IMG/VR virus record: IMGVR_UViG_3300045988_114753
Length of the DNA: 64,000 nucleotides
Direction: 5' to 3' (one strand)
Origin: a virus
Both the position numbers and the translations under genes were made by a program. Each line of letters opens with the position of its first letter. Within the stretch, counting starts at the first letter, position 1. Positions 15,377 to 28,530 of the stretch are shown one piece after another. The notes under the pieces are model-generated. The model saw nothing but the letters and a program-made list of their open reading frames with translations, was not told the origin of the DNA and did not search any database.

Positions 15377-15424
15377 CTCTTTACACTTTAATTATATCAC
15401 ATAAATCGTAAAGTAGGGAAGTAA
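15377..15424 (-). promoter_or_regulatory. phage promoter repeat, copy I
   Basis: - strand reads ATTACTTCCCTAC-N13-TGATATAAT-TAAAGTGTAAAGAGGAGG. Sits directly between a stop codon (15425) and the next gene. Confidence 0.6.
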
Positions 15425-16051
15425 TTATGCAATTTTTAAATCTTTTTTCAAACTTTCTAGTTCATTATGAAAATCTGCTAACCAATCTTCTTCCCATTTT
15501 GTGCCGTCTTTGTGTCTTATGGCTATATTATAAAGTCCATAACCATAATTTAACTCGTCTTCGTCGTCTTGCCACTCGTGTTCGTCCCTAAAATAATCTA
15601 TGGCTCTACCCACAATTCTATTTACCAATTCACTAAATGTTTTGTAGTCTTCGTCCTCTACAAGTTTATTTAGTTGTAGGTCTAATATATTAAAACCACT
15701 TCCCGTGTCTACGGGTTGCCACTCATAAAAATCACAAAACTCTTTTAACAACTCTAAATCTTCGCCACCACTTAATTTTTGTAAGTCAATATTTTTAAAT
15801 TGTTCCTTAAACATTTGTTCGTATGCCATTTTTTTACCATAATCAGTGATGTCATATACTTCTTGATTAGGAATTTGATTTATACTATTGTAATATTCTG
15901 CATACATTTTCCACCTTTGTTCTCCGTCCTCTTTACACTCTTCTAATTTCTTATCTAATAAATCGTAAATTTGCTCCCAATAATGATATGCACTAACCAT
16001 ATTATTATCTTTATATGCTTGTCTGCATTTATCTATAAGTTCTTGATACAT
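15425..16051 (-). CDS. hypothetical protein
   Basis: 208 aa ORF from the track. Confidence 0.75.
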   Translation of the reverse strand: MYQELIDKCRQAYKDNNMVSAYHYWEQIYDLLDKKLEECKEDGEQRWKMYAEYYNSINQIPNQEVYDITDYGKKMAYEQMFKEQFKNIDLQKLSGGEDLELLKEFCDFYEWQPVDTGSGFNILDLQLNKLVEDEDYKTFSELVNRIVGRAIDYFRDEHEWQDDEDELNYGYGLYNIAIRHKDGTKWEEDWLADFHNELESLKKDLKIA

Positions 16052-16088
16052 AATTATTCCTCCTTATTATTGTAATAGAGAGTAATGG

Positions 16089-16718
16089 CTATTTTACCAT
16101 TACTTCCCTAACTACATTTAATACTTCTTCTTGTGTAGGTATTCTGCCAACACTATAATATAAGTCTTTAATGTCCTTTGATATTTCATAACAAACATTA
16201 AATAATTCTATTTCTTTATACCCTTTAATATTCATTTCTATTTCGTACTCTGCTAGTACATTATTATTATACCCAACTAGTATGATTTTTAAACCTTTTT
16301 CAGTATCATTTACACCAACTCCAATTAATGTTTCTAAAGGCTTATAATCTTCGTCGTCTTCCATATCTTCGTCGTCAAGTAATTTTTCTAAAAACTCCTC
16401 GTTTTCTTTATTAGTTTCTAACTCCTCAATTAAGTCTTTTACATAACTAATATAACTTTCAAAATCTTCTAAACTTTCTTTAATTGTAAAGTTATTTCTA
16501 TATTCTTCATTTTCTCTATACATATCTATTTCGCTATCTATATCAAAATTATCTATGTATTCTTTTAATTGTTCTAATAGAGTATCTCCATTTTTTTCAA
16601 TAGTGATAATCATATCAACTCCCTCGTTAGTCCAAGTTTCTAACTCATAACCACTTTCATTTTCTAATATAGTGAAGTAGTTTTCTAATATTTCTCTTTC
16701 ATTTTTTATAATTCTCAT
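16089..16718 (-). CDS. hypothetical highly acidic protein
   Basis: 209 aa ORF with long D/E runs (LLDDEDMEDDEDY). Confidence 0.75.
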   Translation of the reverse strand: MRIIKNEREILENYFTILENESGYELETWTNEGVDMIITIEKNGDTLLEQLKEYIDNFDIDSEIDMYRENEEYRNNFTIKESLEDFESYISYVKDLIEELETNKENEEFLEKLLDDEDMEDDEDYKPLETLIGVGVNDTEKGLKIILVGYNNNVLAEYEIEMNIKGYKEIELFNVCYEISKDIKDLYYSVGRIPTQEEVLNVVREVMVK

Positions 16719-16732
16719 AATTTTCTCCTTTT

Positions 16733-16780
16733 CTCTTATATATTAATTATACCATATAAATCGCATAGTAGGGAAGTAAA
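16733..16780 (-). promoter_or_regulatory. phage promoter repeat, copy H
   Basis: - strand reads TTTACTTCCCTAC-N13-TGGTATAAT-TAATATATAAGA. Confidence 0.6.
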
Positions 16781-16787
16781 ATGATAT

Positions 16788-17078
16788 TTAATAATACTTT
16801 TCTTTTTCTTCCTCACTTAATTCGTCTAGGTCAACAAAATCGTGTCCCATACTTTCTAATAAACTTTCTAAATCTGCCTTATTCATTTGATTTTTGAAAA
16901 GGTCATAAAGTTCTCCGTATGTAAAATTATCGTTAAACTCTTCGGTTATATAATTTTCTAGTACCTCTCCCGTCATATCAATTTCTTCAACCAAGTCCAT
17001 TAAATCAGTTGCCACTCTTTCCATATAAAAGTTTTGCATAAATGAACTTTTTAAAATATTTTTTAATTTTTCTTCCAT
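16788..17078 (-). CDS. hypothetical acidic protein
   Basis: Track gives 16788-17093. The ATG at 17078, 7 nt after GGAGG, is preferred. Confidence 0.7.
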   Translation of the reverse strand: MEEKLKNILKSSFMQNFYMERVATDLMDLVEEIDMTGEVLENYITEEFNDNFTYGELYDLFKNQMNKADLESLLESMGHDFVDLDELSEEEKEKYY

Positions 17079-17080
17079 AA

Positions 17081-17407
17081 TTATTCCTCCCAAACATTTA
17101 TTTTTTCTTTTTTATTATAGTATCTCATATAATTTTCTAACCAATCTTCTAACTCCCTAGTAAACATATTATCTCTTTTTAGATAAAACTTTAAGTTTTC
17201 ATAATCAATACTATTGTCTATGTAATAACCTATATACTCGTCAATGTCATTTAACTTGTCATAATGATTGTCTAATTTTTCAACAAGTTCATTCGCAAGA
17301 GTGAGAACTTTATCACATATTTCTTTATATTCGCTCTCATTCTTGCAATTTTCAAAATCATAATCTAAATCATTTAACTTGTCCTCAATTACTCTTAAAC
17401 TGCTCAT
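17081..17407 (-). CDS. hypothetical protein
   Basis: 108 aa ORF from the track. Confidence 0.7.
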   Translation of the reverse strand: MSSLRVIEDKLNDLDYDFENCKNESEYKEICDKVLTLANELVEKLDNHYDKLNDIDEYIGYYIDNSIDYENLKFYLKRDNMFTRELEDWLENYMRYYNKKEKINVWEE

Positions 17408-17408
17408 A

Positions 17409-18965
17409 TTAAAAGTTTACCTCCATTTTTCTACATTTTGCAAAATCTCTTAATGCTTGTTGTTCTTTTTCAGTAGGCTTTCTATTATGTAGTCCTCTAA
17501 CTTGTACTATTGTATTATGTCTTACCTCAAAAGTAATTAAACTTTCTTCTTTATTTGTTCTTAAGAAGTATATTAAACACTCCCCGTCAATAACTCTCTT
17601 AATATAACTTGCTACACAATGATTAAGTCTATCTCCCTCTTTCTTAAGGTCGTTGCTATTCTTTGGTGCTACTACATAGTACATTTTGCCCTTATATTCT
17701 TTAAAATCTTTGTATCTGCTTGTAAATGTTTCTTCTTTTTCCTTTTCTACTATTACTTTATGATTTCTGCTTGTTATATCGTGTGTTTGTTTTAAATAAC
17801 TTGAATATAATGTCGGCTTAATATCGTCCGTAGTACACATATTAAGATAATCTCTTAATTCAACCACAAAGTCGTTAATACTATTATACCCTTGATTGAT
17901 TGTTTCATTGATTACATAATTTGCGAACTTTCCAAATGAATAATTATCTCTAAACACTTGCTCGTGTGTATAACTAGTCAACATAGTGGCTAAAAGACTA
18001 TCGTTTCTGTTATAATAATAACCACTCCTATAAAACTCTATATTATAAAATCTTAAATCTTCTTCATAATGTTTCATTTCGTCAATAAGTTCAAACCACT
18101 CGTTTTCAGTTTTATGTAGATTATACTTTTCGTTATTTTCTCCACTAATAAAGTTTCTATTGTCAAATAACATTTTAATATCTCCTCGCTCAACGGCTTT
18201 GTCGTATGTTTCTTGTGATACACCTATAATTTTATTAATAGGTAGTGGCTTATCTACTTCTAATTTCAATAAATCGTCCACTATTTCTTTTGGAGAAGTT
18301 TTTAAAATTATTTCAAAAGACTTATTTACTGCATATCTTCTTCTTAATTCTTCTAGGTCAAGACTTCCCTCGTAGTTTACACCAAATAATGTATTGATAA
18401 ACTCTTTACTATCTACTCTTTGAAGAGAGTGTGTTATATTCCAATCAATACTATCTCTAGTAGTAGTTTCTTCTTTTTCTACTTCAAACACGGCTTGTTT
18501 GTTTTCAAAAAAACTAATTACATTTTCTTCTAACAACTTCAAATTAATTCTAGTATTATCTCTATTAATATTATATTTATATTTTTTTATAACAATACTT
18601 GCTAATTGAAAACTATAACCAACCACAACACAAAGTGTATCACTCTTGTTATAGATTGTATACACCACTTCGTCGCCTTGTAATTCGTCAAGTGCTAAAC
18701 CAGTTGCCAAATCAAAATATGTCCCATTTGTTCTGCCGTCATACTTAACAACTACTTTACTTGAAAGTGGTACAAAATTATTTGTATAAACATTTTCCAC
18801 TTCCTTATGTAATTCGTCGGTCTTCAATTCTAAATCTTTTTGTAGTTTATTTATTTGTCTTTTGATTTCTTTTATTTTATCGTCGTTATTTGTAGAACTA
18901 TTACCAATTAAACTTGTTAGGTCGTGTTCCTCTGCTTTAAAATATTCCTTTATATAATTTACCAT
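17409..18965 (-). CDS. PcfJ-like domain protein
   Basis: C-terminal LKKEGDRLNHCVASYIKRVIDGECLIYFLR...VRGLHNR matches my recollection of the PcfJ-like EG-x-x-hNHCV-x-x-Y signature. The N-terminal ~400 aa are unassigned. Confidence 0.55.
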   Translation of the reverse strand: MVNYIKEYFKAEEHDLTSLIGNSSTNNDDKIKEIKRQINKLQKDLELKTDELHKEVENVYTNNFVPLSSKVVVKYDGRTNGTYFDLATGLALDELQGDEVVYTIYNKSDTLCVVVGYSFQLASIVIKKYKYNINRDNTRINLKLLEENVISFFENKQAVFEVEKEETTTRDSIDWNITHSLQRVDSKEFINTLFGVNYEGSLDLEELRRRYAVNKSFEIILKTSPKEIVDDLLKLEVDKPLPINKIIGVSQETYDKAVERGDIKMLFDNRNFISGENNEKYNLHKTENEWFELIDEMKHYEEDLRFYNIEFYRSGYYYNRNDSLLATMLTSYTHEQVFRDNYSFGKFANYVINETINQGYNSINDFVVELRDYLNMCTTDDIKPTLYSSYLKQTHDITSRNHKVIVEKEKEETFTSRYKDFKEYKGKMYYVVAPKNSNDLKKEGDRLNHCVASYIKRVIDGECLIYFLRTNKEESLITFEVRHNTIVQVRGLHNRKPTEKEQQALRDFAKCRKMEVNF

Positions 18966-18976
18966 AATACTCCTCC

Positions 18977-19525
18977 TTATAATAATTCTTTATTTTCCTT
19001 AATATCTATTATTTTAAAATTACGACAACCACAATTTCTATGAACTCTAGTGTTATGTTTATAAGATAAGAATACCTCTCTTGTCATTCTATATCTATAC
19101 CATTCACACCCACATTTTTCACAAACTATTTTATACTTATAAGAACTTTCTCGGTGGTCGCTTGTAGGTCTAACCTCATTTGCTCTTGCATAAATGTTAT
19201 CAATGCTCGTTGTTCTTGTGATGTGATAATCAGTTCTATTATTTACATATCCTGCATAATATTGCCACTTTGCCTTATGCCCTATCGTGTCTTTAAAAGT
19301 ATGCAATATTTCGTGAATGATTGTATTTTTAATATCGTGGTCTAAACCTATTTCTAATAACCAACTAGATATATTAATATCTCTTTTATCAACACATTGT
19401 CCTAGTCTATTCTTTGCTTTATAGTTAATTGTAAAATGAAGATTTTTTGGTATCATTTTACCTAGTCCAATATCTTCTAATTCTTTTATACTTTCTTTAC
19501 TTAATCTTATCAACTTTTCGTTCAT
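18977..19525 (-). CDS. SprT-like zinc metalloprotease with C-terminal zinc ribbon
   Basis: HExxH motif (IIHEILHTF) followed by GH. The C-terminus has CEKCGC...CGC. Confidence 0.65.
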   Translation of the reverse strand: MNEKLIRLSKESIKELEDIGLGKMIPKNLHFTINYKAKNRLGQCVDKRDINISSWLLEIGLDHDIKNTIIHEILHTFKDTIGHKAKWQYYAGYVNNRTDYHITRTTSIDNIYARANEVRPTSDHRESSYKYKIVCEKCGCEWYRYRMTREVFLSYKHNTRVHRNCGCRNFKIIDIKENKELL

Positions 19526-19539
19526 AATTGTTCTTCCTC

Positions 19540-19588
19540 CTCTTTACACTTATATTATAACATATAATTTAAAAAGTAGGGAAGTAAA
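19540..19588 (-). promoter_or_regulatory. phage promoter repeat, copy G
   Basis: - strand reads TTTACTTCCCTAC-N13-TGTTATAAT-ATAAGTGTAAAGAGGAGG. Confidence 0.6.
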
Positions 19589-19589
19589 T

Positions 19590-19838
19590 TTAACTAATTA
19601 AGATAAATTTTTCATTTTCTTTAACACTACTACCAATGTTTTCATTAATTAAATCTACTATCATAGTGTTTTCTTCTTCGCCGTCGTTTTCAACAAGTTC
19701 ACAATACCAAGCATTATGTACTCCATTTAATTCGTCGTCGTTTCCTAAAAATACTCTTATTTTAGATAAATCTAACCCTTGTTCTTCTAATTTTAGTGCC
19801 ACTTCTAATATGCTTTGCATAGTTAATTGTGTATTCAT
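19590..19838 (-). CDS. hypothetical acidic protein
   Basis: 82 aa ORF from the track. Confidence 0.7.
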   Translation of the reverse strand: MNTQLTMQSILEVALKLEEQGLDLSKIRVFLGNDDELNGVHNAWYCELVENDGEEENTMIVDLINENIGSSVKENEKFILIS

Positions 19839-20008
19839 TATTTTTCCTCCTTTACATTTAATACAAACACTTGTTCGCTATCGTTCAAATCAATATATAA
19901 TTCGTTTTTATCGGTCAAATAAATACTTGCTCCGTTTTCGTATGCTAATTCCTCAATATGTTCTGCTATAATCTCGTATAAATTATTCATTAATTGTTCT
20001 TTTGTCAT
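19838..20008 (-). CDS. possible 56 aa acidic protein
   Basis: Not in the track. TAATG junctions at both ends (20008 and 19838). Fills the 19839-20007 gap. Confidence 0.45.
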   Translation of the reverse strand: MTKEQLMNNLYEIIAEHIEELAYENGASIYLTDKNELYIDLNDSEQVFVLNVKEEK

Positions 20009-20247
20009 TATATTACACCTCTATTCTTTAAACCCTCGTATGCACTATATTCGTGCTTTGAAATAGGTTTTACAACCATATATAAAGTAGTACATTGCTC
20101 TAATATAATATAATCAATTATTCTATATGCCTTACCATTTAATTCTAATGTTGCTCCTATCGGTGCTAATGAAATAGATTGCATACTTCCTACTTTTGTA
20201 TAATTTACATTTTCATATATTAATATCTGCATATTACCATTATACAT
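20008..20247 (-). CDS. hypothetical protein
   Basis: 79 aa ORF from the track. Confidence 0.65.
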   Translation of the reverse strand: MYNGNMQILIYENVNYTKVGSMQSISLAPIGATLELNGKAYRIIDYIILEQCTTLYMVVKPISKHEYSAYEGLKNRGVI

Positions 20248-20249
20248 AA

Positions 20250-20567
20250 TTATTCTCCTTTACATAGTGGTATATGATTTACCACCTTAAAATTGTGTGC
20301 TTGAAATTTTTTATTTATATTAAAATCAATATCTTTCATAAGTTGCATTAATTCTTCCATACTTTCCAAAACATTATTTTCCTTTTTAAAATCATATACA
20401 CAACTATATAAATTACTATAATCGTGTTCCCTTTCTCCACTCATATATTCTGCATAACTCATTTTTATTGCTTTATCTCTACAATTTGATAGTTTATAAT
20501 ATAAATCATTATATTCTTCACTACAATATTTTTCTACTAATTCTAATCTTTTTAATAAATCTTCCAT
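20250..20567 (-). CDS. hypothetical protein
   Basis: 105 aa ORF from the track. Confidence 0.7.
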   Translation of the reverse strand: MEDLLKRLELVEKYCSEEYNDLYYKLSNCRDKAIKMSYAEYMSGEREHDYSNLYSCVYDFKKENNVLESMEELMQLMKDIDFNINKKFQAHNFKVVNHIPLCKGE

Positions 20568-20570
20568 AAT

Positions 20571-20903
20571 TTACTCTCCCTCATTATCACTAAACATATC
20601 TAAAAAGTCTAGTGCTTGATAATTTCCAAAATCAGTTAATTCTCTCAATTTGTCATAATAATCAAAATTGTCCTCTTTTTGTGATAATTCGTCTAGTGCT
20701 TTAATTAAACCATTTTCAAGTTTTTTAACATAATCTATATTCAACTCGTGTACTAATTCCATTTCACTCTCGTTGCCAATTTGATTAATTATATCTAGTG
20801 GTGCAATTATCTTATCAAAACATTTTTGCATTGTTTTTTCTTTAACTTTGAATAGATTTCCACCTCTATCAATAACTATTACATAAGGCTCTTCGTTAAA
20901 CAT
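20571..20903 (-). CDS. hypothetical protein
   Basis: 110 aa ORF from the track. Confidence 0.7.
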   Translation of the reverse strand: MFNEEPYVIVIDRGGNLFKVKEKTMQKCFDKIIAPLDIINQIGNESEMELVHELNIDYVKKLENGLIKALDELSQKEDNFDYYDKLRELTDFGNYQALDFLDMFSDNEGE

Positions 20904-20904
20904 A

Positions 20905-21168
20905 TTATTTACCTCCTTTGGCTAATTTTTCTAACTTTTCAGTATCAAACATTATGTTTTTGAATAAAACATTTTCTTTTGTTTTTTTAGTATCTACAAT
21001 ATCAAGATAATCGCTCTTTGATATATCAGTATTACTTTCAAGGTCAAGTATATGTTTATCTCCATTATCTTTTTCAATAATCATAACTCCCTCTTTATTT
21101 CCATAACCTTGTTCGTGGTGTTTATTTACTATTACCACATTTGTTTTTATTTTAACTTCTTTAATCAT
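20905..21168 (-). CDS. hypothetical protein
   Basis: The track start at 21201 is a GTG with no RBS. The ATG at 21168 lies downstream of AAGGAGGAG and is preferred. Confidence 0.6.
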   Translation of the reverse strand: MIKEVKIKTNVVIVNKHHEQGYGNKEGVMIIEKDNGDKHILDLESNTDISKSDYLDIVDTKKTKENVLFKNIMFDTEKLEKLAKGGK

Positions 21169-21540: not shown

Positions 21541-21588
21541 TCCATTACATATTAATTATACCATACAATTTCGTAAGTAGGGAAGTAA
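21541..21588 (-). promoter_or_regulatory. phage promoter repeat, copy F
   Basis: - strand reads ATTACTTCCCTAC-N13-TGGTATAAT-TAATATGTAATGGAGG. The box abuts the stop codon of 21589-22680. Confidence 0.6.
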
Positions 21589-22680
21589 TTAGAAAGTTCT
21601 AGTAAGCAAATTAGTATCTGCTTTTTCAACCCCAATTAAACCTATTTCGCTACATACTTCGTCGCTTTTGTTATATACATAAGCATAACACTCTTTGTTT
21701 TGTAGGTCTTTTCTATCGGCTTTCCATTCTTCGGTGTTATTGCTAACATAAAGCATACTATATAGATTTCCAAAATTACTTTTTGTATATATAATATGAT
21801 ATACATAAGCATTATAATTTTTTTCAAAATTGTTTATGTCTCTTATTAAGTCCATTTCTCCGTCTTTTACTTCTCTTATGTAGTATCTATCACTCATATA
21901 CAATTTATCACTAAATCGTGGCTCTAAACCTAATAATTCTATTCTCTTTTTACTTTCTGCTATTTGTTCTTTAGTAGGCTTGTATTCTCTTCTAGGGACG
22001 GCTTTTATTTCTACATCTTTACCTATTGTTTCTTTCATACAATATGCTTGTTTGTAATTATCGTATATTTTCATATTTCCCTCAAACACATTATAATAAA
22101 AACTACCTTGTGTGCCTTTTGGTGTAATATTTCCATAAGTTTTGCTATATAAATAATACTTGCCGTCGTGTTTTTCTTCTAAAAATTGCATAAACAACTC
22201 ATAATATTTTTCTAGTACCTCGTGTGTCCTTGCTAATTCTTTGTTATATTCTTCTGCTCTATAATATACTTTACTCTTTCCGTCTTTGCTTTCCCACTCT
22301 AAAACATACTCATAATTGCCACTCTCTATTTCAGTTTGTGTTATAGGTGTATATGTACTACTTATTTGTTCTCCTAAACAATATTCAGTATAGTGCATAG
22401 TAGATAATTCATATAAATCGTATTCACTATATCTCGCTCTTATTTCTTCATTTGTCTTATATAAAGCATAATTCCAATCATAACAACTATCATTTAAAAC
22501 TAAACCTCCACCATTAATTCCTCGTAAAAGTCTTAATTCTTTTTCGTGATAATCTTGTTCGTCTGCTCTAAACTCCCACCTACTATATGTTTTTGGCGTA
22601 CAATTACTACACGCACTTGTTATAAATATTTTACCCTCTTTAGGCTTTAATGTTATATTTTTTACTCTTTCAACACTCAT
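21589..22680 (-). CDS. hypothetical protein (363 aa)
   Basis: Large ORF from the track. No motif recognised. Confidence 0.8.
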   Translation of the reverse strand: MSVERVKNITLKPKEGKIFITSACSNCTPKTYSRWEFRADEQDYHEKELRLLRGINGGGLVLNDSCYDWNYALYKTNEEIRARYSEYDLYELSTMHYTEYCLGEQISSTYTPITQTEIESGNYEYVLEWESKDGKSKVYYRAEEYNKELARTHEVLEKYYELFMQFLEEKHDGKYYLYSKTYGNITPKGTQGSFYYNVFEGNMKIYDNYKQAYCMKETIGKDVEIKAVPRREYKPTKEQIAESKKRIELLGLEPRFSDKLYMSDRYYIREVKDGEMDLIRDINNFEKNYNAYVYHIIYTKSNFGNLYSMLYVSNNTEEWKADRKDLQNKECYAYVYNKSDEVCSEIGLIGVEKADTNLLTRTF

Positions 22681-23021: not shown

Positions 23022-23022
23022 A

Positions 23023-23364
23023 TTATTCCACCTCAACTAAACTATTATATGTTACACCCTCACAATCAGTATAAACATTTTTCTCAACTTTGCATTTTGT
23101 ATCAAAATAATTTTTTTGGTCGTTATAGACTTCCATAACTCTATCATAACCTAATATATCAATATATTCTTCTGCATAAGGCTTGTTATAATATTCACTA
23201 CAAGCATTGATACAAACACTTGTGAAAATGTCTTCCCCATATACCAAGCAACTCATAATCATACTTCTTAAACTTAATTCTTCTAATTCCAATTCTTGCT
23301 CTTTAGTTAATGTTTCTAGTCTTCTTAATGATTGCTCTTGTTTTCTTATTTCTTCTCTATTCAT
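23023..23364 (-). CDS. hypothetical protein
   Basis: 113 aa ORF, the first gene after promoter repeat E. Confidence 0.7.
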   Translation of the reverse strand: MNREEIRKQEQSLRRLETLTKEQELELEELSLRSMIMSCLVYGEDIFTSVCINACSEYYNKPYAEEYIDILGYDRVMEVYNDQKNYFDTKCKVEKNVYTDCEGVTYNSLVEVE

Positions 23365-23379
23365 ATATAGTCCTCCTTT

Positions 23380-23426
23380 GTCTTTACACTTATATTATAA
23401 CATAAGATTTTCCAAGTAGGGAAGTA
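23380..23426 (-). promoter_or_regulatory. phage promoter repeat, copy E
   Basis: - strand reads AATACTTCCCTAC-N13-TGTTATAAT-ATAAGTGTAAAGACAAAGGAGG. Confidence 0.6.
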
Positions 23427-23702
23427 TTATGCAAAATTATCAACAAAATATTTTATATCAATTACTTTATCTTTATCGTCAGTAATATATTCATAATAAT
23501 ATTTTATAATTAGTGGTGGCTTTCCAACCTCTGCTAATTCTATGCTACAAATAAACATATCTAAATCTTCGTCGTATACTTCATTAGCATTGCTTATTTC
23601 GTCCTTATAATCGCAAGTATCTTTACTATACCACCTATTAAAATATTCAGTGGCTTTTTTGCCTATATATTCTCCTAATTTATCATAATCTATATTATAC
23701 AT
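23427..23702 (-). CDS. hypothetical protein
   Basis: 91 aa ORF from the track. Confidence 0.7.
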   Translation of the reverse strand: MYNIDYDKLGEYIGKKATEYFNRWYSKDTCDYKDEISNANEVYDEDLDMFICSIELAEVGKPPLIIKYYYEYITDDKDKVIDIKYFVDNFA

Positions 23703-23711
23703 AATTACCTC

Positions 23712-23954
23712 CTAATTATTTCTTTTGGCTCTTTCGTGTTGTAATATTTCCTTTTTACTTCTAGCATACATTTTATTATATTGTCTTTTGATTGCCACTC
23801 TATTTTTGGCTCTTTCATTTCTTGTTGCCTTTGCTTGTAAAAGTTTGCTATTCAAATTATGAAGTCTTAAATATATGTTAATGTCTTTTTCATTATTCAA
23901 TAAATAGTTTTCTATTTCTAGTAATAACTCTAACTCCTCATTTGATATATTCAT
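23712..23954 (-). CDS. hypothetical protein with basic RSKKEIL-type tail
   Basis: The C-terminal QYNKMYARSKKEILQHERA is paralogous to the tail of 22683-23021. Confidence 0.7.
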   Translation of the reverse strand: MNISNEELELLLEIENYLLNNEKDINIYLRLHNLNSKLLQAKATRNERAKNRVAIKRQYNKMYARSKKEILQHERAKRNN

Positions 23955-23963
23955 AATTACCTC

Positions 23964-24176
23964 CTAATTGATTTTATCGTCTTTAGTCCACCAATCAATA
24001 CTATAACCCATTCCGTGGTCGTAGTTAATGGCTACTATATCGTCGTCATTTAATTCCTTTAATTCTTCTAATAAGTCCTCATATTCTTCTATATCTGCTC
24101 CAGTTGTATTGAAATATTCTATAATTTTCTTAACTTCCCCTAAACACATTTCGCCGTTATCATATATTTCTTGCAT
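23964..24176 (-). CDS. hypothetical acidic protein
   Basis: 70 aa ORF from the track. Confidence 0.65.
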   Translation of the reverse strand: MQEIYDNGEMCLGEVKKIIEYFNTTGADIEEYEDLLEELKELNDDDIVAINYDHGMGYSIDWWTKDDKIN

Positions 24177-24178
24177 TG

Positions 24179-24463
24179 TTATTTTTCCTCCTTAATAACC
24201 TTATTTTGCATATATTCGCCACCATTTCCACTCACTATGTTAATAAGTCCTATATCTCTTAAAAGATTTTCCTTATTTTTAGTGTAAATATCAAATATAC
24301 TTCCCTCAATTTCTCCTCGTTCACAACAATCATTTACATAATTTAAAGTTAAAACATTGTTATATCTTTCTTTTAATTCACTAGGAATAAATGGCTTTAA
24401 ATATTCTAAACCTAGTAAATCGCCTTGACTTATTAATTCATTAAACTTTGCTATATCAAACAT
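24179..24463 (-). CDS. hypothetical protein
   Basis: The ATG at 24463, 7 nt after GGAGG, is preferred over the track start at 24484. Confidence 0.7.
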   Translation of the reverse strand: MFDIAKFNELISQGDLLGLEYLKPFIPSELKERYNNVLTLNYVNDCCERGEIEGSIFDIYTKNKENLLRDIGLINIVSGNGGEYMQNKVIKEEK

Positions 24464-24474
24464 ATTATTACCTC

Positions 24475-25008
24475 CTAATTCCATTTTACAAAAGCAAACA
24501 CTTGTTCTCCTCTATATATTGCATATTTTCCGTGTAGTGTTATTGCTATATTATTGCCACAATCATAGTCATAAATGTTAAAGTCGCCCTCAATAGTTGT
24601 TAAGAAGTCCAAACAACTTAAATGCTCGTTATTTTCTAATATATAAACATAATTAGTGCCGTCCCCGTAAAGATTACCTATATTATACTTAAAATCGCTC
24701 GTTCCTACGGCTAAACTTCCTATGTCGCTTTCAGTTGTAAAGTATTTATCGGCTTTACTTCCTAAATATTCTAAAACTAATCTATCATAAAGTTGTATAT
24801 CTTCTTTTGCTAATTCCCAATAACCTTGATTATCTTTTAGTCGCTTGTCGTTAAGAACTAAATCTTTAAACTCATTTATAGTTTTTGCCTTGTTCCAATA
24901 ATCTTTTATGATTGCTATACTCCCCTTATAATCGTATATGCTCTCATTATTTAAACATCTTTTTGTAAAGTCTTTTATTTTCTTTGTTTCTAAAAATTGT
25001 TTTTCCAT
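24475..25008 (-). CDS. hypothetical protein
   Basis: 177 aa ORF from the track. Confidence 0.75.
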   Translation of the reverse strand: MEKQFLETKKIKDFTKRCLNNESIYDYKGSIAIIKDYWNKAKTINEFKDLVLNDKRLKDNQGYWELAKEDIQLYDRLVLEYLGSKADKYFTTESDIGSLAVGTSDFKYNIGNLYGDGTNYVYILENNEHLSCLDFLTTIEGDFNIYDYDCGNNIAITLHGKYAIYRGEQVFAFVKWN

Positions 25009-25020
25009 AATTACACCACC

Positions 25021-25389
25021 TTAATATATAAATTTTATTGTATAATCTTCATTTAAGAAGTCAAAATATTCTTTTTCTAGTGTTATATCTCCAATTTCAA
25101 AATTACACTCTAAACAAGCAACTTCCCTATAATCTAGTTCGGTTTTTCCTTTTTTCCATATAACTATGTTATCATAATAGTTACTAGTGCCACTTGCTAT
25201 GTCTATTGTTAATACATAGTCTTTGTTAATATCTATTGAAAATAAACCAATATTATCGTCTTGTCGTGCATTTAATTCTTTAATTAGTTTTTGCATTTCT
25301 AAACTATCGTCGTCAAAATTAATATCTTGTAATAATCTATTAATATAATCAATATATTTTTTATCTGCTTTTATTTCTATCGTTTTCAT
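25021..25389 (-). CDS. hypothetical protein
   Basis: 122 aa ORF from the track. Confidence 0.7.
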   Translation of the reverse strand: MKTIEIKADKKYIDYINRLLQDINFDDDSLEMQKLIKELNARQDDNIGLFSIDINKDYVLTIDIASGTSNYYDNIVIWKKGKTELDYREVACLECNFEIGDITLEKEYFDFLNEDYTIKFIY

Positions 25390-25391
25390 AT

Positions 25392-25694
25392 TTACACCTC
25401 GTTATCTATCTTATACTCTTTTAATTCTTTTGTTATAATATTGTCTAAATATTTATTTAAAAAGTTTATATTAAGTGTTTTTGATATACTTCCAAAACCA
25501 TACCAATTACTATATAAGAATATTAAATATTGTTTATCATATTTTTCTATTACCATATCTTTTATAACTTGTTTATCTTTTTCCTTAAGGATTTCTATTA
25601 TGGCTCTAATATAACCATTTAAAGATAGTTTTAATTCAATAGACTTGTTATAGTCAATTTTTTCTACTTGATAAAATGCTTTTAAAATATTCAT
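25392..25694 (-). CDS. hypothetical protein
   Basis: 100 aa ORF from the track. Confidence 0.7.
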   Translation of the reverse strand: MNILKAFYQVEKIDYNKSIELKLSLNGYIRAIIEILKEKDKQVIKDMVIEKYDKQYLIFLYSNWYGFGSISKTLNINFLNKYLDNIITKELKEYKIDNEV

Positions 25695-25706
25695 ATTTAC
25701 ACCTCA

Positions 25707-26078
25707 TTAGTCAAAGTTTCTAGTGCTTATTCTTTCCTTAATTTCCATTAAGTCTTTTATATATTCTTTTTGCTCCCACTCTTTAATAACTTCTGCTTTT
25801 TTATTGGCTAGTAGTCTTGATATGCCGTTATCTTCCTTGTATTCTGTTATGTAAGATTTTTGATTGCTTTCTAAAATATTTGCTAGTAGTTGTCGCATAC
25901 AAGTTTGATAAGTGTAGCACTCCCAAGTTCTATTATAATACCTAACTTTATGGCTTTCTACTTCGCCCCAAGGTGCAATTAATGTGCTTTTATGTCCCCA
26001 AGAGTTGCTAGTTTCCCAATATTCATTTACTATATTATATTCATTTCCACTTTTACATTTAATTTTTTTTATTTCCAT
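25707..26078 (-). CDS. hypothetical protein
   Basis: 123 aa ORF, the first gene after promoter repeat D. Confidence 0.7.
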   Translation of the reverse strand: MEIKKIKCKSGNEYNIVNEYWETSNSWGHKSTLIAPWGEVESHKVRYYNRTWECYTYQTCMRQLLANILESNQKSYITEYKEDNGISRLLANKKAEVIKEWEQKEYIKDLMEIKERISTRNFD

Positions 26079-26090
26079 AATTTTTTCCTC

Positions 26091-26139
26091 CTCTTTACAC
26101 CTATATTATATCATAAGTTTTCCAAATACGGGAAGTAAA
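26091..26139 (-). promoter_or_regulatory. phage promoter repeat, copy D
   Basis: - strand reads TTTACTTCCCGTA-N13-TGATATAAT-ATAGGTGTAAAGAGGAGG. The box is slightly diverged. Confidence 0.55.
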
Positions 26140-26391
26140 TTAATTTTTCCCTTGTTTTAGTTTGTCGTTTATTTCCATTTCTGCTCTTTTGTATAGTTCG
26201 TCTAGGTCGTTATAGTCTATGCTATTATGATATAAGTCAATATCTTTTTGTCCTAACATACTAATATATAAGTGGTCGTCATATAGTCCGTAAGTGTCGC
26301 TACAATCAGCACAAGTCCACCCAATATCTGCATTATATTTTAGTAATAAGTCCTTAAATTCTTTTAAAAATTCTTTTTGTTTTACTGTCAT
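26140..26391 (-). CDS. hypothetical protein
   Basis: 83 aa ORF from the track. Confidence 0.7.
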   Translation of the reverse strand: MTVKQKEFLKEFKDLLLKYNADIGWTCADCSDTYGLYDDHLYISMLGQKDIDLYHNSIDYNDLDELYKRAEMEINDKLKQGKN

Positions 26392-26402
26392 ATTGACACC
26401 TC

Positions 26403-26576
26403 CTAAAATAATTTTTCGCCGTCTATTTCCAAATCTAGGTCATATTGTAGGTTGCTTGTTATAGTTGCCTTAATATAATCTATAAAGTCCTCTAGGCTAT
26501 TAATTCCTAATTCTTCCCTCGTATCTGCTCCTATCTCGTCATAAAGTTGTGTTATATATTCCTTATTTAAAGTCAT
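26403..26576 (-). CDS. possible 57 aa acidic protein
   Basis: Not in the track. ATG at 26576 preceded by GGAGGG. Fills part of the 26392-26786 gap. Confidence 0.45.
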   Translation of the reverse strand: MTLNKEYITQLYDEIGADTREELGINSLEDFIDYIKATITSNLQYDLDLEIDGEKLF

Positions 26577-26642
26577 AATTTTTCCCTCCTAACTTTCAAT
26601 AAACATTACAAGGTCTACTCCGTCCTTGAAGTTTTGGCTTTC

Positions 26643-26768
26643 TTATTCCGTCATAACTTCGTCGTACTCGTCCTCGTCTAATTCCATTAAATCTCTATAT
26701 AATCTACCATAAAGTCCTTGACTACTTGCTAAACTCTTGATTGTTTCCATAATTTCTTCTCTTTTCAT
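26643..26768 (-). CDS. possible 41 aa acidic protein
   Basis: Not in the track. ATG at 26768, with an AGAGGTAAAATT-type RBS region upstream. Confidence 0.35.
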   Translation of the reverse strand: MKREEIMETIKSLASSQGLYGRLYRDLMELDEDEYDEVMTE

Positions 26769-26786
26769 AATTTTACCTCTTTTCCT

Positions 26787-27215
26787 TTATTTTAATTTTT
26801 CCTTTACTAATTCTAAATGATTTTCGTGTATGTTTCCTTGTTCTAGGTCTTCTAAAAGTGCCTTGTGTAGATTTCCCACATACTTTTTAAATGTTGTTAT
26901 AATCTTGTCTTCGTCGCCTTGTGTCTTTCTAAAAGCAACTTTTTTGCTTTCATATACTAAATATTTATTAGTAGGTTTTACAAGGTATCTGCTATTCTCA
27001 TTTTCTATTATGTAGTTATTTTCTGCCGTTTTTGTTATTTTAAATAATATACTAAACATATCATTGCAAAAATAACCATTGATTTCTTCTTGCTCGTTTT
27101 GTGCTAGAAATAATTGTACCCATAAAACATTATCTCCACTAAAACTATTTTTCATTATTGCTATTTTACTATTTTTAAATACTTCTTTATATGCTAATTC
27201 TAATTTACTTTCCAT
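26787..27215 (-). CDS. hypothetical protein
   Basis: 142 aa ORF from the track. Confidence 0.75.
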   Translation of the reverse strand: MESKLELAYKEVFKNSKIAIMKNSFSGDNVLWVQLFLAQNEQEEINGYFCNDMFSILFKITKTAENNYIIENENSRYLVKPTNKYLVYESKKVAFRKTQGDEDKIITTFKKYVGNLHKALLEDLEQGNIHENHLELVKEKLK

Positions 27216-27226
27216 ATTTTTTCCTC

Positions 27227-27394
27227 CTATTCGCTCGTTATCTTATTAAATGCACGGTTATATATTGTAGTAGCTTTTTCAACTCCTAAACTCTCTATAA
27301 TGTCCTTGTAATTTTCAAATATAAACCCCTTGAAATAACCATAATATAAACAATCATAACATATCATATAAAAGTCTTGTTCTAATCTTTCCAT
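27227..27394 (-). CDS. hypothetical protein (55 aa short form; track form extends to 27499)
   Basis: The internal ATG at 27394 follows a strong ACGGAGGAG RBS. The upstream 105 nt of the track ORF consists of DNA repeats and looks non-coding. Confidence 0.5.
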   Translation of the reverse strand: MERLEQDFYMICYDCLYYGYFKGFIFENYKDIIESLGVEKATTIYNRAFNKITSE

Positions 27395-27561
27395 AATAAC
27401 TCCTCCGTTCTTTCTCACGGCTCGTGTTATGGCTCTTGTTTCCATAAACACGGCTCGTGATTTCTTTCCGTCGTTTTCAAAAACCTTATAATGTGTCATT
27501 TCTTTCCATAATATGCTTTTTACAAAGCATATAGTCCGTGATTTCTTTCCATTAAGGCTTG
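27395..27561 (-). promoter_or_regulatory. repeat-rich intergenic regulatory region
   Basis: Contains a perfect 22 bp palindrome ATATGCTTT-ttac-AAAGCATAT (27511-27532). Also two copies of CGTGATTTCTTTCC and two copies of the small palindrome CACGGCTCGTG. Confidence 0.45.
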
Positions 27562-27846
27562 TTATTCTTCAGTTAAACCAAATCTAACCTCGTCCAAATC
27601 AACCCTATTAAAATTGATTTTATCCCCATAATGAAAATCTTTTAAAATGCCATATAACTCTAAATCACTCAAATCTTTTAACTTGTGCGTGTTATTGACA
27701 ATTCTAGTTATGCCCTCGTAGTTGTTTTGGTCGTTATTCAACCATAACATAACCAACCAAGTATCTCTATTACACCACCCGTTATAGTCCTCAAATGCTA
27801 ATTTATATTTTTTTGCATAGTTTGTTTTATATTCTTTATTATTCAT
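27562..27846 (-). CDS. hypothetical protein
   Basis: 94 aa ORF from the track. Confidence 0.7.
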   Translation of the reverse strand: MNNKEYKTNYAKKYKLAFEDYNGWCNRDTWLVMLWLNNDQNNYEGITRIVNNTHKLKDLSDLELYGILKDFHYGDKINFNRVDLDEVRFGLTEE

Positions 27847-27847
27847 A

Positions 27848-28096
27848 TTATAATACCTCCAATTTTTTATAATTATATTTTACACCATTTATTAATTCAT
27901 AGGCTAGTCGCTCGTTAATAATTGTATAATCATATTGTAAAGTTTTAATCATATCTCTAATACATAATGAGTTATTAATGATAAGATTAATATCGTCATA
28001 CAACCCAGTTGTTATATAAAGTTTTTTCTTCTTTTCACTATAATACCAATTAAGATTATTTTCTAGCATATAATTTTTTATTTCTTCTTTATTCAT
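27848..28096 (-). CDS. hypothetical protein
   Basis: 82 aa ORF, the first gene of the - strand block after the tandem promoter repeats. Confidence 0.7.
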   Translation of the reverse strand: MNKEEIKNYMLENNLNWYYSEKKKKLYITTGLYDDINLIINNSLCIRDMIKTLQYDYTIINERLAYELINGVKYNYKKLEVL

Positions 28097-28107
28097 AGTA
28101 ATCTCTC

Positions 28108-28156
28108 CTCTTTACACTTATATTATACCATAACTTTTTTAAACTAGGGAAGTAAA
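28108..28156 (-). promoter_or_regulatory. phage promoter repeat, copy A
   Basis: - strand reads TTTACTTCCCTAG-N13-TGGTATAAT-ATAAGTGTAAAGAGGAGAG. Confidence 0.6.
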
Positions 28157-28210
28157 TTGTATTTTTTACAACTTTTTTTTGCAACTTTTTGCACTCTCTA
28201 GTTGTATTAT

Positions 28211-28260
28211 TCCCTTTGTTAATTATATTATACCACAAGTTTTGCGAAGTAGGGAAGTAA
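28211..28260 (-). promoter_or_regulatory. phage promoter repeat, copy B
   Basis: - strand reads TTTACTTCCCTAC-N13-TGGTATAAT-ATAATTAACAAAGGG. No ORF lies before copy A, so it acts as a tandem promoter. Confidence 0.55.
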
Positions 28261-28270
28261 ATTGACTTTT

Positions 28271-28413
28271 CCCCGTTCTTTTTTGTTCGCCGTGTTATAT
28301 GTTCGCCCCGTTCTTCCTCGGCTCGGCTGTTATAGATAGACTTCTACACCTCGCCCCGTGTTAGGAATACACCCGAACACTTGTTCGCACGAACACCCGT
28401 TCGCCTTGTTCGC
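28271..28413. repeat. GC-rich iteron cluster (TGTTCGC / GCGAACA units plus CCCCGTTCTT direct repeat)
   Basis: TGTTCGC occurs at 28284, 28300, 28382 and 28407. CGTTCGC occurs at 28398. Inverted CGAACA occurs at 28374 and 28390, giving interlocking palindromes CGAACActTGTTCG and TGTTCGcaCGAACA. CCCCGTTCTT occurs at 28271 and 28307. Confidence 0.7.
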
Positions 28414-28464
28414 TTTTAGTATCATATCATTATTATTATATACTATTTTTATTTTAATATACAT
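28330..28464 (-). CDS. possible 44 aa protein overlapping the iteron cluster
   Basis: Not in the track. GGAGGTG lies 8 nt upstream of the ATG at 28464, just downstream of promoter repeat C. Coding status is uncertain because the sequence is dominated by DNA repeats. Confidence 0.35.
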   Translation of the reverse strand: MYIKIKIVYNNNDMILKANKANGCSCEQVFGCIPNTGRGVEVYL

Positions 28465-28482
28465 TTTTTTGACACCTCCTAA

Positions 28483-28530
28483 AAGTTACAATATAATTAT
28501 ATCATAAGTTTAGAAAAGCAGGGAAGTAAA
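28483..28530 (-). promoter_or_regulatory. phage promoter repeat, copy C
   Basis: - strand reads TTTACTTCCCTGC-N13-TGATATAAT-TATATTGTAACTTTTAGGAGG. Confidence 0.55.

Follow-up and report, generated by a model that had tools for sequence, protein, structure and literature searches.

The locus and its surroundings

The DNA considered here, a window of 64,000 nucleotides, is part of the genome of an uncultured human-gut phage of ~105-115 kb. Between 15.4 and 28.5 kb, its minus strand carries nine promoter-like units, in each of which a short sequence, here called the box, lies upstream of an extended -10 element. The first of them, P1 (28496-28530), heads a leftward gene block; it consists of the box TTTACTTCCCTGC, 13 nt and TGATATAAT, and its leader has its own SD and an ORF of 44 codons. 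P2 (28227-28261; box TTTACTTCCCTAC, 13 nt, TGGTATAAT) has neither an SD nor a gene of its own and reads into P3 (28122-28156), in which the box TTTACTTCCCTAG, 13 nt and TGGTATAAT are followed by the leader ATAAGTGTAAAGAGGAG and an ATG at 28096. Farther along the block, such units are found at 26105-26139 (variant box TTTACTTCCCGTA, full leader), 23394-23428 (box ATACTTCCCTAC, with leader), 21555-21589 (box ATTACTTCCCTAC), 19554-19588 (box TTTACTTCCCTAC, with leader), 16746-16780 (box TTTACTTCCCTAC) and 15391-15425, the last of the block (box ATTACTTCCCTAC, with leader).

Divergently from P1, the plus strand carries an operon composed of a 76-aa hydrophobic ORF (28691-28921), which is replaced by non-homologous small ORFs in relatives of the phage, and the gene for a 193-aa protein (28987-29568). 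Two promoters point towards this operon: a perfect-consensus sigma-A promoter (plus strand, 28469-28497; TTGACA-17-TATAAT), whose -10 overlaps the -10 of P1 on the opposite strand, and a second one at 28620-28648 (TTGTAA-17-TATAAT with TG). Between P1 and P2 lie two adjacent perfect CGAAC-N4-GTTCG palindromes (28374-28403), which correspond to the LexA/Cheo-box consensus of Firmicutes and are conserved in relatives. The other operons of the phage have canonical TTGACA sigma-A promoters without the box. Among them are a back-to-back pair at 30781-30856 (minus strand 30809-30781, plus strand 30828-30856; both TTGACA-17 with TG), of which the plus-strand member drives a rightward block of small genes, and a promoter at 39464-39492 on the plus strand (TTGACA-17-TGTTATAAT). 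The latter fronts an operon whose last gene encodes the phage RNA polymerase, a single-subunit enzyme of the YonO type (plus strand, 40679-43429; Pfam RdRP, PF05183). By this polymerase, the phage is a distant relative of SPbeta and c-st. A module of yonV-yonO-yonJ-yonG-yonF (terminase) is common to the phage and SPbeta in the same relative order, and its proteins are 28-38% identical to the SPbeta proteins; at the DNA level, no similarity to any deposited phage was found.

Architecture of the nine promoters

The nine minus-strand copies claimed in the initial annotation are real and conform to TTACTTCCC(TAC)-N13-TRTGnTATAAT, and the start coordinates given there are the starts of the units, right to a few bases. 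When the window was searched for ACTTCCCTAC-N13-TGNTATAAT with up to 2 mismatches, 8 matches were obtained on the minus strand (15391-15422, 16746-16777, 19554-19585, 21555-21586, 23394-23425, 28122-28153, 28227-28258 and 28496-28527). A ninth copy, with the variant box ACTTCCCGTA, lies at 26105-26136. The pattern of box, N13 and extended -10 gave 0 matches across 100 shuffles. On the minus strand from 15 to 28.5 kb, the box is present at every intergenic extended -10, and no terminator-like site was seen ahead of the copies, as had been stated.

Alignment of the nine copies shows that positions -39 to -32 (TACTTCCC), the TG, the TATAAT and T-17 are invariant. Positions -17 to -14 read TATG in seven copies and TGTG in the other two, which is the TRTG form of the Gram-positive '-16 region', so that all nine belong to the extended -10 class (TGn plus TATAAT). 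The distance between box and TG is 13 nt in 9/9 copies, the spacer being variable in sequence and constant in length. The box itself is asymmetric, spans 12-13 bp from about -41 to -29 and always has the same orientation; its last three positions (TAC) are the loosest, reading TGC in P1, TAG in P3 and GTA in the 26.1 kb copy. At the place of the -35 hexamer (-35 to -30) the sequence is, as the initial annotation rightly says, TCCCTA instead of TTGACA, with 2/6 matches to the canonical hexamer; a TTTACT sits 23 bp upstream of the -10, and TTGACA-like hexamers 16-18 bp upstream of the -10 are absent from the nine promoters. The leader had been described as a usual part of the repeat. A AAGTGTAAAGAGGAGG-type leader is clear in 6/9 copies; the three with different leaders are P1, P2 and the 16.7 kb copy. 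The leader is very short and leads directly into a strong ribosome-binding site, and the predicted transcription start is the G of GTGTAAAG, 7 nt past TATAAT. Judged from sequence and from comparison with other phages, the nine units are very probably promoters of the extended -10 type for host sigma-A RNA polymerase. Of two further sites proposed as remnants, the 'tenth copy' on the minus strand at 12396-12430 keeps TATAAT and the GTGTAAAGAG leader and lacks both TG and box, and is better called a decayed promoter, of which genome L020 (type B) has an intact ortholog with the box; that at 29862-29880 is only a leader-like string, AGTGTAAAGAGGAGG.

A generic promoter with a particular box

The ~48 bp repeat had been regarded as one unit, and this view could not be kept: the extended -10 together with the GTGTAAAGAGG leader is generic in unrelated gut phages. 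Among unrelated viral contigs, more than 120 stretches contain a promoter and leader of the form TGnTATAAT-N4-GTGTAAAGA, in nearly every case with TTGACA, TTGTAT or TTGATA at 17 bp, and many unrelated gut phages use the GTGTAAAGAGGAGG leader with the extended -10 behind a TTGACA-like -35. Since nearly all of these stretches have a normal -35, only the box is particular to this phage, while the -10 and the leader belong to the host polymerase. Ordinary Gram-positive extended -10 promoters are likewise alike to the nine copies in TRTGnTATAAT, but they add a TTGACA-like -35 at 17 bp, which the nine copies do not have. Promoters with a TRTG-extended -10 can function without a -35 contact, and therefore an activator is not strictly needed here.

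Box types among relatives

In relatives of the phage the promoter architecture is kept, but at least seven kinds of box are found in it, namely types A (TTACTTCCCTAC), B (TTTTTCTACTATA), C (AAAGTCCTATAT), C' (AAAGTCCTAGAT), D (TTTACCCCTNTTTRGAG), E (TTTTACACCTAG) and F (AGTGAAATATA), and each genome has one box type throughout its early promoters. Across about 90 sites of the 7 types, box core and TG are separated by a distance that changes by no more than 1 bp: it is the same in 28/28 sites of type A, 25/25 of B, 7/7 of C', 4/4 of E and 9/9 of F, and varies by 1 bp in types C and D. Genomes of types B and C share ~80-90% DNA identity; in their orthologous promoters the flanks are nearly identical and only ~11 bp (-40 to -30) are exchanged. 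Some type A relatives have an additional box 21 bp upstream as a direct repeat, an arrangement that fits one protein monomer per box.

Because the other operons have canonical promoters without a box, and because the box is swapped as a set, the box is most likely the site at which a lineage-specific phage factor acts at the -35 position, and we hold this part of the interpretation with good confidence. A phage-encoded reader of the box, as suggested in the initial annotation, is thus the likeliest reading, backed by at least seven types swapped as sets, although no MotA-, AsiA- or sigma-like protein was found among ~30 of the ~140 ORFs of the window that were compared with Pfam, PHROGs and NCBIfam.

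Could the repeats instead be mainly substrates of recombination, that is, mobile promoter cassettes whose box has no regulatory partner and is kept by gene conversion? Promoter cassettes are found at gene-module boundaries in T4-type phages, where they are called PeSL elements. In the present phages, the early block is highly mosaic, and a promoter and its gene can come or go together as one module, as in the relative 134872, which lacks the 16.7 kb promoter along with its gene. Gene conversion alone, however, does not account for the box being better conserved than the rest within a genome, for its being the only part exchanged between near-identical genomes, or for its fixed distance to the -10 in seven lineages, and we consider this explanation very improbable.

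It is also conceivable that the box is read directly by a component of a polymerase, either a sigma-like subunit with an altered region 4 or the YonO-type polymerase. In position and phasing the box does resemble a promoter element, and the phage encodes its own RNA polymerase, of a type for which the promoter recognized by YonO has yet to be defined (PMC5467207). Against this, the same -10 and leader are found with a normal -35 in many phages without a phage polymerase, no Sigma70 domains were detected in the proteins scanned, and YonO of SPbeta transcribes the late operon from one start (PMC5467207). Moreover, genomes of types B and C have phage polymerases that are 97% identical, so that the enzyme cannot explain the switch of the box. 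Such a direct reading therefore seems very improbable.

A candidate for the proposed factor

The 193-aa protein is the only one universal among the fetched relatives whose divergence follows box type, in a scan of the families common to the fetched genomes, where those of types C-F are partial and another co-varying protein could be missed. Between types B and C it is 45-52% identical, whereas the neighbouring proteins are all 84-97% identical; between type B genomes it is 69-74% identical even where its neighbours fall to 31-68%. Divergence tracks box type most strongly in the C-terminal ~55 aa, and in the C-terminal part identity is 78-88% between B and B and 26-30% between B and C. The protein has a conserved N-terminal domain, which is a widespread uncharacterised phage domain also present inside large multidomain proteins, and a type-specific C-terminal part. 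Within the protein, a stretch of 8 residues is invariant in each type despite heavy polymorphism elsewhere: in type A it is KTLLNATY in nearly all of ~115 alleles, about ten of which show conservative variants only (e.g., KSLLNATY, KTILNATY and NATH), and in type B it is KTIDNIIY in 34 alleles. In a blind test, an allele with KTIRNATY was predicted to go with a C-like box, and its genome turned out to have 7 promoters with GTCCTAGA, one base off the type C box.

The AlphaFold model of the 193-aa protein is confident (pLDDT 91) and matches no DNA-binding fold among the solved structures of the PDB, MotA included; as far as the model goes, the predicted fold is new. A profile of the C-terminal part had GerE/LuxR-type HTH proteins as its top two sequence matches in the PDB, both weak (E = 0.021 and 0.065), and other weak sequence matches were to NUMOD1 and HTH_17, but the model has only a 6-residue helix in the C-terminal region and supports none of the three. 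Since the gene is hypervariable, like those engaged in arms races, its co-variation with the box could also be a product of local linkage, the gene lying at the head of the block. The 193-aa protein may be the box-specific factor, and we put it forward, by co-variation alone, as a tentative candidate to which we give somewhat less than an even chance. As a separate observation, the hypervariability of the types, the neighbouring LexA boxes and a regulator-like gene placed divergently give the locus the look of an immunity region, a resemblance that favours a repressor and speaks against an activator.

Activator or repressor

How would a factor bound at the box act? We favour positive control, although we give it about an even chance. 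In this scheme the box would be the docking site for a phage-encoded, lineage-specific DNA-binding factor, which would supply the upstream promoter contact normally made by sigma region 4 with the -35, in the manner of class II activation or sigma appropriation, that is, of the kind known for T4 MotA, MalT and PhoB. The host polymerase would first read the canonical promoters, namely those of the rightward small-gene block, the RNA polymerase operon and the operon divergent from P1, and the factor, as the product of one of these canonical operons, might then act at the nine boxes to turn on the leftward block as a whole.

The other way to use such a site is repression. The initial annotation had offered a repressor operator shared by all units as its alternative, and this is still a live rival, in our judgement plausible but clearly the less probable of the two. 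The box would then be the operator of a lineage-specific phage repressor covering the -35 region of all nine promoters, either an immunity-type master repressor like MrpR or a repressor for early shut-off; unrepressed promoters would fire from the extended -10 alone, and the box types would be heteroimmunity groups. SPbeta, the closest studied relative, has an MrpR-bound repeated element in ~10 early promoters (PMC10516654). In the phages studied here, perfect TRTGnTATAAT elements should need no activator, and a switch of allelic type from one genome to another that is otherwise almost the same is what repressor-operator pairs under frequency-dependent selection typically show. The 193-aa gene, divergent from P1 with its own canonical promoters and with small membrane ORFs ahead, looks like part of a lysogeny or immunity operon, two perfect LexA boxes adjoin that operon, and the extra tandem box in some relatives suggests cooperative binding. 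On the other hand, the asymmetry of the box, its single orientation and its phasing within 1 bp across seven diverged lineages are features that a pure roadblock does not need. The canonical promoters of the rightward block and of the RNA polymerase operon have no box, and a box-binding repressor alone could therefore not silence the phage. No integrated copy was found in 185,579 reference genomes searched with the type A promoter pattern. A homolog of MrpR (YopR), which has a catalytically dead tyrosine-recombinase fold, was not found either when all proteins of the window were compared by tblastn with the 50-100 kb region of SPbeta, which includes yopR; the only match in that region was of the recombinase at 6570-7499 to yopP (24%), and this, the only tyrosine recombinase, is Xer-like with its catalytic residues R, K, HxxR, H and Y all kept. 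Nor was any similarity seen between the box and the SPBRE copies (about AATACAAAWAATATGTATATA) extracted from SPbeta.

Returning to positive control, a wider proposal may be ventured, which we regard as possible but doubtful. Widespread gut phages of 100-133 kb with a YonO-type polymerase might run their main early block by a private promoter code, in which a small phage protein of two domains and novel fold would replace the recognition of the -35 by region 4 of sigma-A, as a Gram-positive form of sigma appropriation, and protein and box might have co-diversified into at least seven mutually orthogonal specificities, with all promoters rewritten at each change.

Whichever way the factor acts, the variation of the box is a natural experiment in co-evolution, in which the -10 and leader are constant, the box takes seven types and the flanks are ~90% identical, and the comparative pattern yields a short list of testable protein-DNA pairs. 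Should the 193-aa protein be the reader, it would represent a new DNA-recognition fold and give a function to a widespread uncharacterised phage domain, and the box types would be ready-made orthogonal promoter-factor pairs for Firmicutes. If the factor is a repressor instead, the box type would tell to which immunity group one of these abundant, uncultured gut phages belongs.

Comparison with known systems

To our knowledge, phage promoters in which a factor-specific box takes the place of the -35 are known in detail essentially from T4 only, and we know of no comparable case among phages that infect Gram-positive gut bacteria or those with a YonO polymerase, about whose regulation little is known. 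Middle promoters of T4 have a MotA box 12 +/- 1 bp from the -10, and MotA is a two-domain monomer of ~210 aa (PMC2988021), near in size to the 193-aa candidate. The two systems are alike in an excellent host-type -10, often with TGn, in having, at a fixed distance and in place of the -35, an asymmetric box specific to the phage, and in many copies spread over a prereplicative gene block. They differ in that the box of the present phage is ~3-5 bp farther upstream, 16 bp from the -10 hexamer and centred at about -35/-36 instead of -30, that its host is Gram-positive, and that homologs of MotA and AsiA were not found among the ~30 scanned proteins. The modelled fold of the candidate differs from the double-wing of MotA and from every other solved structure, and the box comes in at least seven interchangeable types here, a feature not known for MotA. 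For the present promoters, dependence on an activator is a proposal.

SPBRE and MrpR of SPbeta are similar in that a repeated cis-element occurs in ~10 early promoters of a large phage encoding YonO. SPBRE is, however, a 15-bp palindrome-like element of variable position, which may lie upstream of the -10, over it or downstream, in contrast to the asymmetric and strictly phased box, and SPbeta has SPBRE at the yonP-yonO promoter while there is no box at the RNA polymerase operon of the present phage. Class II sites offer another parallel. MalT boxes at -37.5/-38.5 and the pho boxes of PhoB are asymmetric, lie in one orientation and are fixed over the -35 region of promoters without a -35 hexamer, where the activator contacts sigma region 4. 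MalT and PhoB are host regulators with a single specificity each, whereas the factor considered here is apparently phage-encoded and appears to diversify rapidly together with all its sites. Finally, the immunity modules of lambdoid and other temperate phages share with the present phages discrete specificity types between very similar genomes and a candidate regulator gene divergent from the first early promoter, but classical operators are clustered dyads, while the sites here are single and asymmetric, distributed among nine or more promoters in a region exceeding 13 kb, and kept in register with the -10.

Box promoters of the leftward block

The box, a 12-13 bp element standing in place of -35, is found in nine minus-strand promoters between 15.4 and 28.5 kb of the window. 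When the window was searched for ACTTCCCTAC-N13-TGNTATAAT with up to two mismatches, eight minus-strand matches were obtained, against none in 100 dinucleotide-preserving shuffles; a ninth, at 26105-26136 (-), is a variant whose box reads ACTTCCCGTA. A list of all TGNTATAAT sites shows a box at each intergenic one on the minus strand from 15 to 28.5 kb. When aligned, the nine copies agree throughout at positions -39 to -32 (TACTTCCC), T-28, A-22, T-17, TG and TATAAT, and the spacer between box and TG is variable in sequence but fixed at 13 nt in length. Judging from the pattern count against shuffles and from this alignment, the array is far beyond chance. The initial annotation, which had reported nine copies with constant spacing between the box and the extended -10, was thus right on both points, and also in placing TCCCTA instead of TTGACA at the canonical -35 position and in noting the absence of terminators, since no terminator-like site was found upstream of the copies. 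Its degenerate tenth copy at 12396-12430 has indeed lost both TG and box, and the ortholog of this copy is intact in one relative. Positions -17 to -14 read TATG in seven copies and TGTG in two, which is the TRTG '-16 region' of Gram-positive promoters. The nine units are therefore sigma-A-type extended -10 promoters without a -35 element, with a phased, oriented and lineage-specific box; they occur only in the leftward early block, and the other operons are on canonical promoters.

Exchange of the box among relatives

The box of the window phage, type A (TTACTTCCC...), is present at orthologous promoters of six close relatives. In more distant relatives TRTGnTATAAT and the leader are retained together with a different box: type B, WATTTTTCTACTATA (loci L020/L025, L024/L148 and L159); type C, AAAAGTCCTATAT (L147, L156); type C', AAAAGTCCTAGAT (L251); type D, TTTACCCCTNTTTRGAG (L158); type E, CTTTTACACCTAG (L160); and type F, AGTGAAATATA with GGTGCA further upstream, in phages of 123-133 kb (L166, L248-L250). 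Box core and TG are equally far apart in all sites of a type (A 28/28, B 25/25, C' 7/7, E 4/4, F 9/9), except for 1 bp variation in types C and D. In every type the box extends from about -41 to -28, and its non-template strand is pyrimidine-rich in most types, type F being the exception. The type C promoter pattern gave only chance matches in IMG/VR. In some type A relatives (L021 146-200, L144 ~1600, and L146), a second box lies exactly 21 bp, or two helical turns, upstream of the box of P2 (the box promoter at 28227-28261), as a direct repeat TTTACTTCCCTAGTAATGAAATTTACTTCCCTAC.

Type B and type C genomes are ~80-90% identical in DNA across the early block and the polymerase region. Their orthologous promoters are nearly identical in flanks, spacer, -10 and leader, and only ~11 bp, from -40 to -30, are exchanged. 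A cis-element whose sequence is the same throughout a genome but not across lineages, and which changes faster than its flanks, calls for a trans partner differing between the same lineages; the likeliest source of such a partner is therefore the phage itself. We infer from these comparisons that a phage factor would bind the box. A purely recombinational role of the box is unlikely in view of this exchange and of the conservation pattern of the nine copies.

How much of the unit belongs to the phage itself? The combination TGNTATAAT-N4-GTGTAAAGA occurs in at least 120 stretches of IMG/VR, and the matches listed come from many unrelated phages, including ~16 kb podophage-like contigs and contigs of 40-50 kb and 130-180 kb. 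The podophage-like contigs have TGnTATAAT-N4-GTGTAAAGA facing inward at both ends. Nearly all the listed matches have TTGACA, TTGTAT or TTGATA upstream at 17 bp and, downstream, a purine-rich ribosome-binding site. Since unrelated phages share them together with a -35, the extended -10 and the GTGTAAAGAGG leader are a generic sigma-A promoter and leader of the host range. The recurrence of TGnTATAAT-N4-GTGTAAAGA with a purine-rich Shine-Dalgarno sequence (loci L026-L143) implies a host-adapted promoter, start site and leader, in which the conserved GTGTAAAGA is so far unexplained. Only the box of the whole unit is particular to the window phage. The single promoter repeat of the initial annotation thus has to be divided: its box is phage-specific, and its extended -10 and leader are generic parts found in unrelated gut phages. 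This sharing with phages that have a normal -35 also makes it unlikely that the box is read directly by a phage polymerase or a sigma-like factor, all the more because the polymerase is 97% identical between types B and C.

The phage and its genome

The window has a G+C content of ~29% and consists of a minus-strand block of ~95 small genes, which occupies the left part up to 28.5 kb, and plus-strand blocks that begin at 30.9 kb. A 916-aa ORF at 40679-43429 (+) matches Pfam RdRP (PF05183), the family that includes YonO, the SPbeta RNA polymerase with a single subunit; SPbeta-like Bacillus phages, Clostridium phage c-st, Enterocloster phages and a human faecal phage encode the closest of its deposited relatives (28-33% identity). 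Homologs of yonV, yonO, yonJ, yonG and yonF (terminase) follow an SPbeta-like order, and the YonO-type polymerase module spans 37497-38711 (-), 40679-43429 (+) and 44303-48116 (+). YonO of SPbeta serves the late operon alone, which it transcribes from a single start, and the promoter it recognises is not known (PMC5467207). Directly 3' of the polymerase gene and accompanying it in every relative is a 261-aa gene (43423-44208) with a C-terminal zinc-ribbon-like motif, whose product may act as a cofactor of the polymerase.

For 15-29 kb, megablast detected no DNA-level match among 50,697 deposited phages, and proteins of the phage recur on many human-gut metagenome contigs of 105-115 kb. In 185,579 reference genomes the type A promoter pattern has only single chance matches, inside coding DNA, and a plasmid search returned only distant YonO homologs, on plasmids of Clostridium botulinum and Bacillus. 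No RNA genes were detected in the whole window, either with Rfam at gathering threshold or by a tRNA scan.

The early block contains a Xer-like tyrosine recombinase (6570-7499, -) with all catalytic residues kept and weak likeness to SPbeta YopP. Its role could be that of an integrase or of a dimer resolvase, and it bears on a temperate versus plasmid-like lifestyle. Six paralogous genes at 1378-5603 (-) (1378-1746, 1748-2107, 2110-2619, 2810-3595, 3607-4179 and 5169-5603) have in common an N-terminal motif, (I/T)R(Y/I/N)G(T/S/I)FETNSSSTH(S/A), and differ in their C-termini; Pfam gave no match for the one at 2810-3595. A radical-SAM protein is encoded at 463-1359 (-) in the leftward block. Genes for Lar-like zinc-ribbon proteins, which may be anti-restriction factors, open the rightward early block (30884-31177 and 32686-32883, +).

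Canonical promoters and the head of the early block

Besides the box set, the window has ordinary promoters free of the box: one with a 12/12 consensus match (TTGACA-17-TATAAT) at 28469-28497 (+), and others at 28620-28648 (+), 30809-30781 (-), 30828-30856 (+) and, ahead of the RNA polymerase operon, 39464-39492 (+). The phage therefore has two classes of sigma-A-type promoter. At 28469-28504 the plus-strand consensus promoter and P1, the box promoter at 28496-28530 (-), share their -10 region on opposite strands (TGATATAATTATA), and therefore use of the one should preclude use of the other. The divergent promoter of relatives is instead ~70-110 bp away. Between P1 and P2 are two perfect, adjacent LexA (Cheo) boxes (28374-28387 and 28390-28403), and 28270-28430 contains further LexA half-matches and repeated ATAACACGG motifs. 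LexA-like boxes lie at the equivalent place in the relatives L020, L164 and L250. These motifs suggest that SOS signals feed into the early block at its head.

The region 29600-30850 has no ORFs and a raised G+C. Its canonical minus-strand promoters (30809-30781 and 30205-30177) and terminator-like hairpins (30626-30607, 29953-29935 and 29599-29586) probably define two small RNAs of ~150-220 nt; Rfam gave no match there. The region may hold the genome terminus, because metagenomic contigs of several relatives (L017, L155, L157) end in or beside it.

A candidate for the box factor

In search of the partner, ORFs of 11 genomes were clustered over ~10 kb on each side of the 417-aa anchor gene. 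This 417-aa protein (36247-37500, +) is conserved and shows weak signatures of a GHKL/sacsin-type ATPase. When the type C genome is compared with L148 and L159, both of type B, the shared families are 84-97% identical (RNA polymerase 97%) with a sole exception, a 193-aa protein encoded at 28987-29568 (+), divergently from P1, at 45-52%. Its identity is 69-74% within type B, even where other proteins reach only 31-68%, 76-94% within type A, and at most 59% between types throughout. The N-terminal 140 residues are conserved across types. The C-terminal ~55 residues are 78-88% identical within B and 26-30% between B and C, and the highest cross-type value (44-56%) is between A and C, whose boxes are the most alike, sharing TCC..CTA. 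Within each type one stretch hardly varies: it is KTLLNATY in type A, where variants are rare and conservative, KTIDNIIY in 34/34 alleles of type B, KTIKNAIY in type C, and either REIYNIIN or KEVYNILN in type F. In a blind test, the genome of an allele with KTIRNATY was found to carry seven promoters with GTCCTAGA, one base off type C. A 78%-identical type A allele (KTILNATY) comes from a genome whose boxes are of type A. Polymorphism of the gene is high: type A has ~115 different alleles, at 80-100% identity. In metagenomes its 90%-identity clusters (homologs P0121-P0300) are nearly all single-member, unlike those of its neighbours.

A first structure model was poor at the C-terminus; a second (AlphaFold) model is a confident alpha/beta fold (pLDDT 90.9), and its comparison with the PDB gave no significant match. 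The N-terminal ~120 residues are an uncharacterised domain common in phages, either standalone or within multidomain proteins of 400-1100 aa, often near contig ends. The C-terminal profile gave weak matches to GerE/LuxR HTH (E = 0.02-0.07), NUMOD1 and HTH_17, which the AlphaFold model does not support, and PADLOC and NCBIfam gave no match for the 193-aa protein. Because of the PDB comparison without a match, the widespread N-terminal domain, the unsupported HTH matches and the partial coverage of type C-F genomes, the 193-aa protein is a lead, not a result: it is possibly the factor that reads the box.

Other candidates were set aside. Rightward-block proteins diverge strongly between A and B but are 84-97% identical between B and C despite the box switch, and the divergence of a 363-aa and a 142-aa early protein, like that of the RNA polymerase (97% B-C), is discordant with box type. 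The Xer-like recombinase, considered as an analogue of MrpR, the SPbeta master repressor, is set aside only tentatively: it is catalytically intact, and in the comparison of types A and B its identity of 63% is no different from that of its neighbours. SPBRE, the repeated element bound by MrpR, has no similarity to the box, and an 11-nt TTTACTTCCCT upstream of SPbeta yopM has a different spacing and was judged to be chance.

Activation or repression

Does the factor switch these promoters on or off? We favour positive control, to which we give an even chance. The box keeps a single orientation and a phasing within 1 bp in seven diverged lineages; a stereospecific contact with RNA polymerase needs both, and a roadblock needs neither. 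Furthermore, the whole class lacks a -35, with which the same -10 and leader are nearly always associated in other phages, and each promoter has one asymmetric site. The promoter layout also yields a simple order of events, in which canonical promoters would fire first and the factor would then switch on the box regulon.

That the box is instead the operator of a repressor is less likely, even though MrpR and SPBRE of SPbeta provide a precedent (PMC10516654), the box types are immunity-like, the candidate 193-aa gene is divergent in position, two perfect LexA boxes lie at 28374-28403, and TRTG promoters are able to fire unaided. SPBRE is dyad-like and variably placed, unlike the box, and no MrpR homolog was found when the window proteins were compared with SPbeta. 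Moreover, the RNA polymerase operon and the rightward block have no box, and therefore a box repressor alone could not silence a prophage. For the activating factor favoured here, the proposal of the initial annotation holds insofar as a phage-encoded factor, in parallel with T4 middle promoters, is most likely; its sigma-like reader is improbable.

Comparison with known systems

A literature search found no description of this promoter system. The class itself, in which a box for a phage-specific factor replaces -35, is already known from T4; what appears to be new is its setting in Gram-positive gut phages with a YonO-type polymerase, the existence of a family of interchangeable boxes, at least seven in number, which change throughout a genome, and a candidate reader of unknown fold. 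T4 middle promoters combine an excellent -10, in many cases with TGn, and, at a distance of 12 +/- 1 bp, the box of MotA, a monomeric two-domain activator (PMC2988021). The likeness to the window phage thus lies in the combination of a factor box with an excellent -10. The sites of MalT and PhoB offer a further parallel to a box that replaces -35.
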